From a virus, in the IMG/VR virus record IMGVR_UViG_3300025732_000019: DNA of 64,000 nt, one strand, 5' to 3'. The position numbers and the translations under genes were made by a program. Positions within the stretch are counted from its first letter, which is position 1. Each line of letters starts with the position of its first letter. Positions 20,029 through 24,816 of the stretch are shown piece by piece. The notes below the pieces were generated by a model. The model saw only the letters and a program-made list of their open reading frames with translations, ran no database searches and was not told the DNA's origin.

Positions 20029-20688
20029 ATGGCGTCTGTTGGCATTTTCGAAACGCTTCGACAACGTATTCTCGACAGCAACGGGTTGCTCCCACAAGAA
20101 CGACGAGCGATGCTCTGGTTTCGTGAGTATGCAACGACGTTGCGAGCATGGCAAAATAGCTACTCCAATCGGATCACCTACACGCAGTTAGCGAAAGACA
20201 CATCCTACGCAAAACGGTTGGTGCCGGTGTCGCAAGCACGTCCCGGCCGACTGTACTTCTATGTCTACCAGCCTGAGCATGCAAGAACATTAGAATACTA
20301 TGATCGGTTTCCGTTCACCCTTATCATTGACCGCAGCCCGACGCACCTCTTGGGATTGAACTTTCACTACCTTGATAATCTGTATCGCGCTAAGTTATTT
20401 GATGCACTCTACACTCGCGCACGCAACGTGCAAAAGAACCCGAAGACACCCGCAGACACGCTAAATACCTATATCGCAGTTGACTACGATCTGTTAAATG
20501 GTGTGCGACGGTTTGCGCCGTTTCGGCCATGCATTCATTCGTATCTGCGAAAGAACATCCGCACACCCTTGCTGCAAGTGGGCGAAAGTGAATGGGATAT
20601 CGCATTGTTCCTGCCTGTGGAGCGATTTGCAAAAGAAACACGCAGCACGGTGTGGGCAGAGTCACGAAAGAAGATTACACGAGGATAG
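20029..20688 (+). CDS. gp2: DNA end protector gp2
   Basis: PGRLYFYVY, YYDRFP, GLNFHYL, PCIHSYL, W..A.FLP.ERF, VWAES. Confidence 0.92.
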   Translation: MASVGIFETLRQRILDSNGLLPQERRAMLWFREYATTLRAWQNSYSNRITYTQLAKDTSYAKRLVPVSQARPGRLYFYVYQPEHARTLEYYDRFPFTLIIDRSPTHLLGLNFHYLDNLYRAKLFDALYTRARNVQKNPKTPADTLNTYIAVDYDLLNGVRRFAPFRPCIHSYLRKNIRTPLLQVGESEWDIALFLPVERFAKETRSTVWAESRKKITRG

Positions 20689-20699
20689 AGCGCACGCGT

Positions 20700-21617
20700 A
20701 TGCCTAATCTACAGAAGTTTATGTCGGAGGTCGGTCAATACGGATTTCAGAAATCAAATTGGTTTGATTTCCGGATTAGCGCATTACCGTTTATTGATCC
20801 AAATTATGCCTCACGCAATCAAATTTATGGCCCTCAGTATGGAACAACACAATTCGGGTTTGAGAATTTCCTTCAACAAGGTTTAGTGTGCACGTCCGTT
20901 TCATTACCGGGTCGAGGGTTTGCGACGGCCGATCAATCTATCTACGGGTTCACTCGCAAAGTTCCATATTTTAGTGAATTTCCCCCACTCTCATGCACAT
21001 TCGTTGTGCCCATTGGGCCTGATGGAACAAATTTTGGTGCATCATACTTTAGAGCATGGATGAATCAAATACAAAATGTGCCGCAAAATGAAACAAGCCA
21101 AGAAACCGTTGACGTGGGGCAAGGCGCATTCGATATGGCATTTCCGGAGACGTATTATGCGGAAGCGGAAATCCGCCAGTACAGTTTTATTGATGTGAGT
21201 CAAACGGATACAACCGCTCAAATCAATATGCACACCAATACGCTGAACGGTTCGTCTACACTGGGAAGAGCCGCAACAACATTTGCAGATGCGTATCTGA
21301 GCAAAAATGAACCATCGAACCCAAATGCTGGGCAAACCATTCGACAAGTATCATTACGACATCGGTTTTATCAACTCTATCCGGCATCGATTGAAGCCAC
21401 GCCATTAAATTGGGCCGATACGGATTCTTTCACGCAGATAACAGTCACATTCAACTATAGTTATTGGGTGGATATGGGATTGTCCGCAGATACGGAAGAT
21501 AATATCTTAGCATATTCGCGTGGTAAAGACGGCACGCCGTCGAAGATTGAAAAGTTTTTTGGCACACTGAAAGACGCTGCATTAGACGAAGCTCGATTCC
21601 GTGGATGGATTAAATAA
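20700..21617 (+). CDS. gp54: Tail tube initiator gp54-like
   Basis: CTSVSLPGR, RKVPY, YFRAW.N.I, YP.SI...LNW, VTFNYSYW. Confidence 0.75.
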   Translation: MPNLQKFMSEVGQYGFQKSNWFDFRISALPFIDPNYASRNQIYGPQYGTTQFGFENFLQQGLVCTSVSLPGRGFATADQSIYGFTRKVPYFSEFPPLSCTFVVPIGPDGTNFGASYFRAWMNQIQNVPQNETSQETVDVGQGAFDMAFPETYYAEAEIRQYSFIDVSQTDTTAQINMHTNTLNGSSTLGRAATTFADAYLSKNEPSNPNAGQTIRQVSLRHRFYQLYPASIEATPLNWADTDSFTQITVTFNYSYWVDMGLSADTEDNILAYSRGKDGTPSKIEKFFGTLKDAALDEARFRGWIK

Positions 21618-21641: not shown

Positions 21642-22406
21642 ATGGCACTCCCTAAACTGACGACGCCGGAATATACCATACAATTATTAAGTCTTGCGAA
21701 ACCGGTTCGGTTTCGACCCTATCTTGTGCGCGAAGAAAAGATTCTGCTCATGGCACAACAGGGTGAGGATAAAAAAGAAATCGAGAGTGCCGTCAAGCAG
21801 ATTTTGCGTGCTTGCACGTTTGACGCGGTTGATATAGATGCGCTGCCATCATTTGATCTGGAATATCTGTATCTGCAACTGCGGGCCCGCTCAGTGAACA
21901 ATATCATTGAGACGCGGTTCCAGTGTCAGAACATTGTGCGAGGTCTTTCTGAGGGAGAGCCGCTTCTCAACGCAAATGATGACGGTCGGTGTAAGACGCT
22001 CGTCACCGTGCAAGTCAATTTAGACGACGTGCGAGTACAGACGACTGAAGGGCATACCAAGCAGATCATGATTACCGATGATATTGGATTGGCGTTGCGC
22101 TATCCGACCGCGGCGGTGCTGGATACATGGGTCAATGAAGCGTCAACGGGATTAGCGGTATTACGCGTACTGAATGAATGTATCGAACATGTGTACACTG
22201 CCTCGGGTGACGTTTATGAGTTTCGCGATCAAACGGAACAAGAGCGTCAAAATTTTATTGAATCGTTAAGCGTATCGCAGTTAGAAAAAGTGAGCGCGTT
22301 TTTTCAGACAATGCCGGTACTTTCACATTCGGTGCCGTTTCGATGCCCGAAATGCGCGTATGAAGAGACGATCACACTACAGGGGCTTGACAGTTTTTTC
22401 GGATAG
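21642..22406 (+). CDS. gp26: Baseplate hub assembly protein gp26-like
   Basis: MALPKL.TPEY...RFRPYLVREEKILLMA, FDLEYLYLQLRARSV, ends GLDSFFG. Confidence 0.92.
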   Translation: MALPKLTTPEYTIQLLSLAKPVRFRPYLVREEKILLMAQQGEDKKEIESAVKQILRACTFDAVDIDALPSFDLEYLYLQLRARSVNNIIETRFQCQNIVRGLSEGEPLLNANDDGRCKTLVTVQVNLDDVRVQTTEGHTKQIMITDDIGLALRYPTAAVLDTWVNEASTGLAVLRVLNECIEHVYTASGDVYEFRDQTEQERQNFIESLSVSQLEKVSAFFQTMPVLSHSVPFRCPKCAYEETITLQGLDSFFG

Positions 22407-22429
22407 GGCAGAGCCACGAAACTCTGCCC
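22394..22429 (+). promoter_or_regulatory. Predicted -1 programmed ribosomal frameshift signal
   Basis: T_TTT_TTC (22394-22400), 5-nt spacer, stem GGGCAGAG(22406-13)/CTCTGCCC(22422-29). Confidence 0.75.
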
Positions 22430-22597
22430 AACTATTATACGCTGAACTTTAATCTGATTAAACATCATGGATTCTCATTGACAGAGTTGGAAGATATGCT
22501 CCCGTTCGAACGAGATGTATATGTCGTGCTACTGCGTCAGTGGCTCGAACAACAAGAAGAAATCGCTAAACGACAAGCGCAACAAGCACGACGATAG
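22400..22597 (+). CDS. gp51: gp51-like hub assembly domain without its own start codon (probably reached by -1 frameshift from gp26)
   Basis: -1 frame reads RIGQSHETLPNYYTLNFNLIKHHGFSLTELEDMLPFERDVYVVLL...; frame closed upstream by TGA 22388-22390; no ATG/GTG before the conserved motif. Confidence 0.85.
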   Translation, partial: RIGQSHETLPNYYTLNFNLIKHHGFSLTELEDMLPFERDVYVVLLRQWLEQQEEIAKRQAQQARR

Positions 22598-22611: not shown

Positions 22612-24816
22612 ATGGCAGATACCAAATTCGCAGAACTTAAAACCGCGATTCGACAAGCAGAATTGCAGCGAGAGATTGCCGATTTACCGTCGTCGCCCAA
22701 AGCATTGCGTACGCTCATCACCATTCTTTCTGAGCAAGGTTCCGCAATCCTGAAGACGGACACAGGGTTCGGATATCTTCGAGCGATTACCTCCGTCACG
22801 AAGACTTTGGAAGATGTTCCGCCGCGGCTGTGGGGAAACGCCACACAAGAAATCGAATATATTCTGAGCTTTGCTGACAGAGACTCCTTTCTTGCACCAG
22901 ATGAACTAGAAGTGCTAAAGAGCACCGCGCAGGCACTGACGAGAGAGATCACGCGTCAATCGAGACTCGCAGTTCGCACCGCTGGAATGCTGGCGCGAGG
23001 CGTCAAGCGCCTTGGTGAGGGAATACTGGAGCGCGGTGCCGGTTCGCAAAACATCGTCGTTCGCATGGGTTCGAAGTTAGCACTCGCTTCGATTGAGCGT
23101 CGGCGCACCACCAAGGAAGTGGGTAAGGAGTTTGCGCGAACCCGCGCCGGAGCATTAGGCGCCATCAGCAGCTATCGCACTCCCTTCGCGCCGTTGGGGG
23201 GTTCTCCGCTCGGTAACACGAATGGCGATAGTTTCAGTAGAGTACCTACAGGAACAGCAAGTGGCGAGGCCACCCAACTTCGTCTCCCTATTGAGTTCGA
23301 ACAACTCAGTGAACTGAAAAAGATCAATAGAACACTTGTTCGTCAAATCGGAGTTGCTGAAAACATTGACGAAGAGAACGACAAGCAACGCGCAATTGAG
23401 CAAAGTCGTTTAGGCTTTGGAGAGATGGAAAGGGGGATTGAAACGCCTCGAATGACATTGGCGAGCATTTCTTCCGCCTCTACATCTACCACTAAAACGC
23501 CGTCTGGAAGTATATTCAGCGATTTATTGAAAGTGTTCAGTGAAGGTATCGGTGGGGTATTAAAAAATATTATGCCTTTTGGTGAAGCTCTTGCTGGTGT
23601 AATTCCTGCGGCTCTTGGTGCGGCGCCGGCTCTTTTGGGAATAACCGCGGCCGCCTACGGTGTAAAAAAAGTTATGGATATGTATAGTGCTTATAAAGGC
23701 TATACCGAAGGGCAATCACAACTTGTTAAAGACCAAGCAGTCGGAGCAGGAATTGACGCTAAAAACATAGAAAGAAGTCGCAAACTTGCCATCGAGAGAG
23801 CAAAGGCATTGGGTGAGAACCCAGATGCTCCGGGTGGCGCATTTCTTTCACCAACATTTTATCTTAGTAAAACGAATAAAATGGGGATATTCAAACCCGG
23901 TTCCGCAGAACTTTTACCGGGAAAAGAATTACCAAGTAAAGAAGCCGCACCTGCACCACTTACACCATCACGTGTATTTGGAGCAGAAATGCTTCCCGCA
24001 CCGCCGATGACACCATCACAAATCAGCGGCGGGGATATGCAGTATAATTTGCGTCAATCGTTGGCGTCGCAAGGTATTCTTGATCCAAAGGCACAAGCAA
24101 ACATTTTTGCTCAAATACAGGGTGAATCGCAATTTGAATTGAAAGATGAGTCGCTGAATTATAGCCCTCAACGATTGTTTGAATTGTTTGGTGTGGGAAA
24201 TAAATTTGGCAATAAAGTTCGTTTGAAAACAATAAAGGATGCGGAAAAAATTGTTGCACAAGGCCCTGTTGCCATCGGCAATCTTCTGTACGGTGGCCGA
24301 ATGGGAAATGCGAGTAGTGAAGGATTCTTATATCGAGGTCGTGGTTATATCCAACTGACAGGAAAAGACAATTATAAGCGCGTCGGTGATATGATTGGTG
24401 TCGATCTCGTTACGCAACCAGATTTGGTCAACGACCCCATTATCGGCGCTCAAGTGGTGGCGGCATATTATAAAATGCGGGCGGGGAAAACTGGAGATTT
24501 GACTGATATCAGTGCCGTCAATCGAATGACGGGTTTTGCGACAGGTAGTAAAGAAGGCGCACGTCGTATGCAGAGTAGCGCGGATTTCTTATCCTCATTC
24601 AATGTGGAACCGAGTGTGAATCGCAACGCCTTCCCCGTCAGTACACTGACTGGTGCACTCACGTCACAAGGGCAGAATGTGATGGTAATGAATGCGCCGA
24701 CGATGGCGCCAATTGTGAATGTGCAGGGAGGCGGATCGACAGTCGTACCGATGCCGATCCGTACGGAGCCGTTAGAAAATACGTTACTCGCGCTGACGCG
24801 TTTGAACTATGTGTAA
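22612..24816 (+). CDS. Tape-measure/gp29-like protein with GH19 chitinase/lysozyme-like domain
   Basis: Helical N-terminus, hydrophobic Gly/Ala stretch, ESLNYS...YGGRMGN...YRGRGYIQLTGKDNY; follows gp26/gp51. Confidence 0.8.
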   Translation: MADTKFAELKTAIRQAELQREIADLPSSPKALRTLITILSEQGSAILKTDTGFGYLRAITSVTKTLEDVPPRLWGNATQEIEYILSFADRDSFLAPDELEVLKSTAQALTREITRQSRLAVRTAGMLARGVKRLGEGILERGAGSQNIVVRMGSKLALASIERRRTTKEVGKEFARTRAGALGAISSYRTPFAPLGGSPLGNTNGDSFSRVPTGTASGEATQLRLPIEFEQLSELKKINRTLVRQIGVAENIDEENDKQRAIEQSRLGFGEMERGIETPRMTLASISSASTSTTKTPSGSIFSDLLKVFSEGIGGVLKNIMPFGEALAGVIPAALGAAPALLGITAAAYGVKKVMDMYSAYKGYTEGQSQLVKDQAVGAGIDAKNIERSRKLAIERAKALGENPDAPGGAFLSPTFYLSKTNKMGIFKPGSAELLPGKELPSKEAAPAPLTPSRVFGAEMLPAPPMTPSQISGGDMQYNLRQSLASQGILDPKAQANIFAQIQGESQFELKDESLNYSPQRLFELFGVGNKFGNKVRLKTIKDAEKIVAQGPVAIGNLLYGGRMGNASSEGFLYRGRGYIQLTGKDNYKRVGDMIGVDLVTQPDLVNDPIIGAQVVAAYYKMRAGKTGDLTDISAVNRMTGFATGSKEGARRMQSSADFLSSFNVEPSVNRNAFPVSTLTGALTSQGQNVMVMNAPTMAPIVNVQGGGSTVVPMPIRTEPLENTLLALTRLNYV

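Follow-up and report, generated by a model that had tools for sequence, protein, structure and literature searches.

A gp26-like gene of an uncultured T4-like phage very probably encodes both a short protein and a gp26-gp51 fusion made by a -1 slip on TTTTTTC

The gp26-like gene described here, in the window (by which we mean the whole 64,000-nt stretch of viral DNA that was analysed), very probably gives two proteins, of 254 and 318 residues, the longer of which would be made by a -1 slip on TTTTTTC. We are highly confident that recoding of some kind makes a gp26-gp51 fusion, and we assign a probability of about 0.8 to the more specific reading that this recoding takes the form of a programmed -1 ribosomal frameshift, with U_UUU_UUC (22394-22400) as its site. 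The majority of ribosomes would end at the TAG at 22404 and release the 254-aa short form, and in a minority both Phe tRNAs would move back by one base, so that CGG at 22400 would be read next and translation would go on for 65 codons, giving a 318-aa long form composed of the gp26 domain and a gp51 tail. This short and long pair would be the counterpart of T4 gp26 and gp51 and would act like lambda G/GT, with the common N-terminal chaperone domain coating a tape-measure-like protein encoded downstream and the additional tail, present in the rare long form, docking the complex onto hub or tube parts. The direct basis of this scheme consists of sequence signals, their conservation, domain architecture and fold, from which we infer the slippage, its efficiency and the protein binding. 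The features of the window on which the argument turns are the following.

21642..22406, plus strand: gp26-like gene, short form, 254 aa (PF12322, phrog_150, AlphaFold2 model)
22380..22385, plus strand: Shine-Dalgarno-like CAGGGG, candidate 5' stimulator, 8-10 nt 5' of the heptamer
22388..22390, plus strand: TGA shutting the -1 frame just 5' of the slip site
22394..22400, plus strand: putative slippery heptamer T_TTT_TTC, in X_XXY_YYZ phase in the gp26 frame
22400..22597, plus strand: -1 frame extension, gp51-like C-terminal tail, 65 codons and TAG (phrog_634, phrog_150, T4 gp51 alignment)
22404..22406, plus strand: TAG stop of the short form, one codon past the heptamer
22406..22429, plus strand: 8-bp stem with 8-nt loop, candidate 3' stimulator, 5 nt past the heptamer
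22612..24816, plus strand: 734-aa gene, presumed tape measure (gp29 analogue) with a GH19 wall-hydrolase domain

The 3' end of the gp26 ORF reads GAC AGT TTT TTC GGA TAG, with the T run at 22394-22399. The TGA at 22388-22390 closes the -1 frame, which thus cannot be entered by translation from farther upstream, and from 22391 this frame is open up to the TAG at 22595-22597, so that the predicted long form comprises 253 + 65 = 318 aa. The first ATG, GTG or TTG of the -1 ORF is the TTG at 22478, 28 codons past the slip site. From its residue 3 onward, the -1 product is similar to phrog_634 (gp51, 'baseplate hub assembly catalyst'), with an E value of 5.4e-23. A first-pass annotation had described the end of gp26, the heptamer T_TTT_TTC, a perfect 8-bp stem 5 nt farther on and a -1 frame, open from 22391 onward, with a full gp51-like motif and no ATG or GTG ahead of it, and each of these details was confirmed on the sequence.

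In order to place the site among its relatives, we compared it with other phages at two depths. A tblastn search with the 68-residue -1 product retrieved 560 phage records, aligned from residue 1-2 and overlapping the 3' end of the annotated gp26, from cyanophages and from phages of Vibrio, Rhizobium, Sinorhizobium, Pelagibacter, Methylophilales and Pseudomonas. Nine named phages (from the Kyanoviridae, the KVP40 group, the Pootjesviridae and others), 80 IMG/VR loci (32-53% identity) and the window were then examined at the nucleotide level, and 88 loci could be scored. All 88 one-gene loci carry an in-phase NNT TTT TTN, and the six T columns are invariant across the 86 loci that were aligned. 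The codon preceding TTT is AGT in 29 loci, AAT in 21, GAT in 18, TCT in 15, GCT in 4 and GGT in 1, and five amino acids occur before the Phe among the 88 loci, with T as third base of the codon throughout. The first Phe codon is always TTT (88/88), the last codon of the heptamer is TTC (64), TTT (17), TTA (6) or TTG (1), and the frame-0 stop is found 0, 1 or 3 codons past the heptamer in 6, 77 and 5 of the 88 loci, respectively. The sole TTG case among the scored loci belongs to Rhizobium phage P9VFCI (L006 1204-1216), where the variant T_TTT_TTG is followed by CAC TGA and an overlapping ATG (TGATG); the record has N bases just upstream.

In the same genes, T-ending codons make up 35-77% of the background and TTT 72% of the Phe codons. 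With this codon use and with loci taken as independent, log10 P is -18.7 for the preceding T and -12.7 for TTT, both of which are overstated because the loci are related (shared 12-mers group them into 76 clusters). Despite this kinship the conservation signal is not in doubt, and the in-phase T run of the putative slip site, the same in 88 of 88 related loci, is far beyond chance. Coding does not account for the T before TTT TTN either, since it is synonymous in frame 0 and since a -1 stop lies directly 5' of it in many loci, including the window. Past the slip, the Arg of the -1 frame (CGN) is kept in 66 of the 88 loci while the overlapping frame-0 residue is G, V, A, E or D, which points to a -1 frame that is already under selection 5' of any start codon.

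The -1 signal of E. coli dnaX reportedly combines an X_XXY_YYZ heptamer with a stem-loop a few nt 3' of it and with a Shine-Dalgarno-like motif inside the gene, about 10 nt 5'. The signal that we propose would be tripartite in the same manner, its internal motif likewise lying about 10 nt 5' of the heptamer and its hairpin 5 nt 3'. All three parts are seen in the window, where a perfect 8-bp stem comes after a 5-nt spacer; the window differs from dnaX in the heptamer itself, in that the shift adds a 65-residue tail instead of an early stop, and in a 3' stem that varies among the lineages of the gp26 family. The lambda slip site also has another heptamer, G_GGA_AAG as against U_UUU_UUC in the window.

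Although the CAGGGG of the window is weaker than the GAGG-type motif of the family, GAGG, GGAG or AGGA is present at the motif position in 63 of the 88 loci, compared with 6% of control windows. The GAGG of the family ends 10 nt before the first T, as part of GGAGGG in 24 loci and of TGAGGG in 17. Of the 62 Glu codons that supply the motif, 44 (71%) are GAG, against a background of 21% in the same genes (p 2.5e-17), and this candidate stimulator is thus held by synonymous codon choice.

The 3' element behaves differently among lineages. In the window the stem arms GGGCAGAG (22406-22413) and CUCUGCCC (22422-22429) are perfectly complementary, and the 77-nt fold reaches -17.6 kcal/mol (z -2.76), a value equalled by 1 of 200 shuffles. 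This stem is kept only in L011, L012 and L013, the window's own clade, with one compensatory pair (G:C to A:U). More generally, the 42 nt past the heptamer fold with a mean of -6.65 kcal/mol, compared with -4.2 kcal/mol in in-gene control windows (p 1.3e-5), and 36% of the loci have z below -2 for this segment. A hairpin common to the whole family was considered and rejected: the window's stem, when mapped on the 86 aligned loci, pairs in only 39.5% of the cells, which does not exceed the slid controls, and RNAalifold gave no consensus over the family's aligned loci. The candidate hairpin is a feature of the window's clade, and the helices predicted elsewhere are lineage-specific, with no common helix among them. 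The expectation that the 3' ends of gp26 would share a slippery site and a hairpin thus holds for the former, found in phase in 88 of 88 loci, and fails for the latter outside this clade.

The same proteins would also result from transcriptional slippage, in which an extra U inserted by RNA polymerase at the T6 run would let some mRNAs encode the fusion in a single frame. The conserved element is indeed a homopolymer, which extends to 7-8 T in 17 of the 88 loci; however, the run has exactly six T and is ended by C in the 71 others, and six T is short, given that reports of efficient slippage by bacterial RNA polymerase usually concern runs of about 8-9 or more. The run is moreover always phased as X_XXY_YYZ, and it is accompanied by hairpins and by a Shine-Dalgarno-like motif that is synonymously kept at a dnaX-like spacing. 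Because the motif, the heptamer and the 3' stem are signals directed at the ribosome, we rank transcriptional slippage on T6 low and consider it unlikely.

A natural control for the proposed frameshift is available in T4, in which genes 26 and 51 are separate and divergently transcribed. The two proteins, gp26 (208 aa) and gp51 (249 aa), both have the PF12322 domain and are both needed for assembly. Residues 1-201 of T4 gp51 correspond to the full PF12322 domain (E 3.9e-52) and residues 200-246 align with the -1 tail of the window (BLASTP, E 1e-4). On the 282 positions of phrog_150, T4 gp51 covers 13-280 and T4 gp26 stops at 235, while in the window the gp26-like short form covers 5-232 and the tail 230-277; the junction is also colinear (..DVF-KLL.. 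in T4 gp51 and ..SFF-RIG.. in the window). The domain, the aligned tail and the profile coverage together give T4 gp51 the architecture of the predicted fusion, and in T4 the tail is never found apart from a gp26-like domain. The difference is that T4 has two diverged genes, whereas the window has one gene with a start-less -1 extension and would have an identical N-terminal domain in both forms. In GenBank MT385367 (Acinetobacter phage Abraxas, L101 178-933 and 1001-1645), gp26 and gp51 are both labelled 'tape measure protein assembly chaperone'.

T4 gp26 retains at its C-terminus the ..GL.EFF motif of the window's protein, as ..GLKEFF.., but there it is coded GAG TTC TTT, without the slippery run. 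Six further lineages have a separate gene 51 (Jiaodavirus, Dhakavirus, Lazarusvirus, Krischvirus, Tulanevirus and the IMG/VR locus L097): in all seven, T4 included, this gene has 249-267 aa and the ..EFF.. motif is kept in codons such as GAG TTC TTT or similar ones, with neither an in-phase run nor a -1 extension. Two one-gene members of the Straboviridae, Vibrio phage VmeM-32 and Aeromonas phage AsFcp_1 (L104 and L105), have both the run and the extension. The T run is present exactly where a frameshift would need it and lost where gene 51 is separate and full-length. In L097, a T-even-like contig, gene 26 ends with GAG TTT TTT AAA, that is, six T in the wrong phase (XXX YYY), and a stop is met immediately in the -1 frame; this negative example shows that a T6 run alone does not mark a site.

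These comparisons also bear on whether the tail could be a separate small protein, started independently at ATA 22403, CTG 22424 or TTG 22478, perhaps through reinitiation by ribosomes that have terminated at the gp26 stop. Databases do annotate short gp51 genes of 44-60 aa, and an ATG, GTG or TTG lies 8 codons or fewer from the slip site in 31 of the 88 loci, some of them as TGATG or TAATG overlaps, so that independent initiation would be possible in those relatives. In 49 of the 88 loci, however, the first such codon is at least 9 codons downstream of the slip and cuts into the conserved SH..L.NYY block, and in the window there is none for 28 codons and no Shine-Dalgarno motif 5-10 nt before ATA 22403, CTG 22424 or TTG 22478. 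Independent initiation would furthermore leave unexplained the invariant synonymous T and TTT of frame 0 and the disappearance of the run from precisely those lineages that have a full-length gene 51, and it fits poorly with the constant attachment of the T4 tail to a gp26-like domain; we find it very unlikely. Finally, homopolymers are error-prone and a true run of 7 T would make gp26-gp51 one continuous ORF, but such an assembly or sequencing error has a negligible probability, given that the six-T run with a close frame-0 stop recurs in the 560 phage records and 80 IMG/VR contigs, which come from many laboratories and platforms, and that each of the best 120 among 3,619 homologues has a length of 234-254 aa, with no in-frame fusion in this set.

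At the protein level, the short form matches Pfam PF12322 (T4_baseplate) over profile positions 2-218 of 219 with an E value of 1.2e-57. Its AlphaFold2 model (pLDDT 86.7) was compared by VIA-align with 48,161 chains, and ranks 1-3 were taken by 3FGX, 3KLU and 2OB9, with Z of 7.2, 7.1 and 7.0, respectively, followed by a fourth rank at Z 5.0; a Z of about 7 is moderate, within the range that VIA-align rates as common for best matches. The three top matches superpose 84-85 residues at an rmsd of 3.7-3.9 A, within the first 90 or so residues of the model, and are all phage tail assembly chaperones (HK97 gp13, YqbN and Rbstp2171; PMC9603447). It is unlikely that precisely this trio would come out on top by chance, and the predicted model thus supports a tail-assembly-chaperone fold for the N-terminal domain of gp26. 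A Foldseek search of the PDB with the short-form model gave no match at E 0.001 or better, and a profile search of PDB sequences gave a chance match only. Past the chaperone fold, the short form consists of an alpha/beta domain in which four Cys (C95, C117, C235 and C238) are invariant across 24 diverse gp26 homologues, and this suggests a zinc site in that domain. T4 gp26 and gp51 likewise have CxC/CxxC motifs, and one gp26 homologue is labelled TFIIS/RpoM-like by JGI.

The surroundings of the gene are those of an uncultured T4-like phage. The minus strand carries gp8, gp7, gp6, gp25, a peptidase ORF, a split gp5, a tail protein, gp53 and gp48, and the plus strand has gp4, gp2, a gp54-like gene and gp26, followed by the -1 tail and by the 734-aa gene in which a GH19 domain is embedded. 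Vibrio phage K575 shows the same gene order. A DNA search of the phage collection with the window gave no match, and the phage is therefore without a close sequenced relative in that collection. The listed gp54-like ORF (20592-21617) overlaps the gp2 ORF (20029-20688) by 97 nt, and the in-frame ATG at 20700 (MPNLQKF...) is more likely to be its start.

The 734-aa protein is probably the gp29 analogue, that is, the tape measure, as judged by its position, its size and weak atlas leads (0.82-0.86) to tape-measure clusters, PF25671 included. It matches Pfam PF00182 at residues 570-623 and phrog_181 at 481-635, whereas its N-terminal 463 aa had no match in a PHROG search and BLASTP of the protein against T4 gp29 and against its Vibrio K575 counterpart detected no similarity. 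The GH19 domain (chitinase or lysozyme-like) extends over about 480-635. The protein is otherwise unmatched and includes a hydrophobic segment rich in Gly and Ala; it is probably a tape measure that carries its own wall hydrolase.

A -1 frameshift is conserved in tail assembly chaperone genes, as in lambda gpG/gpGT (Xu, Hendrix and Duda 2004, Mol Cell 16:11). The window shares with this type, by sequence, the -1 frameshift arrangement (T_TTT_TTC at 22394-22400, followed by a frame open to 22597) and, according to the predicted model and at a moderate Z, the chaperone fold of 2OB9, 3KLU and 3FGX. It differs from lambda gpG/gpGT in that the proteins have no sequence similarity and in that the window's protein is larger, with a chaperone fold of about 90 aa joined to the four-Cys alpha/beta domain. 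In T4, gp26 and gp51 are hub assembly chaperones, gp51 being essential, of unknown function and absent from the particle (Leiman et al. 2010, PMC3004832, Table 2). The proposal of the first-pass annotation that gp26 and gp26-51 are the G/GT equivalents of this lineage is supported by the conserved site, by the architecture of T4 gp51 and by the chaperone fold.

A direct literature search for a gp26/gp51 frameshift returned nothing relevant. PMC12846349, however, cites the work of Vladimirov, Gautam and Davidson (Virology 2022;566:9-15) for poly-T -1 frameshift signals in short-form genes. According to the PRFect paper (PMC10274946), which also cites it, some T4-like phages have one short and one longer fused gene instead of frameshifting. 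As far as these citations go, the two arrangements, frameshift on the one hand and short plus fused genes on the other, are the same pair as the one found here, and our site appears to be another instance of an apparently published phenomenon. Should Vladimirov et al. favour a non-ribosomal mechanism for one-gene phages, the present data would speak against it. What may go beyond the known is the synonymously kept Shine-Dalgarno-like motif at dnaX spacing, the presence/absence control and the two ORFs that tile one profile. It is possible, although we hold it doubtful, that the three-part signal of one-gene T4-like phages, that is, a dnaX-style signal with a GGAGG-type motif exactly 10 nt 5', U_UUU_UUN and changeable hairpins, is undescribed; the clean loss of this signal wherever gene 51 became separate would belong to the same reading, and we are just as tentative about its novelty.

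The annotation of these loci is affected as well. In S-RSM4, Melnitz and phi-pp2 (L001 1567-1701, L003 1564-1707 and L005 1264-1383), gp51 is annotated from an internal ATG about 60 nt past the start of homology, and in S-CAM4 (L002 1517-1694) the tail stretch is unannotated; none of the public records that we examined has a joined (ribosomal slippage) CDS at these loci. The suggestion that separately annotated short gp51 genes may be frameshift products gains support, their starts being internal codons that cut conserved sequence. Hundreds of phage records, among them those of cyanophages, pelagiphages, vibriophages and rhizobiophages, show a stand-alone gp51 of 44-60 aa, or nothing, where a fusion of about 300-320 aa is most likely made.

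The window adds another instance to the phenomenon, together with details of the signal, in the form of the Shine-Dalgarno-like motif, and a natural control. T4 gp51, 'essential, of unknown function and not in the particle', would be explained as the long form of a chaperone pair. For the evolution of recoding, these phages would offer a natural example in which the same problem is met by one recoded gene in some lineages and by two duplicated genes in others.
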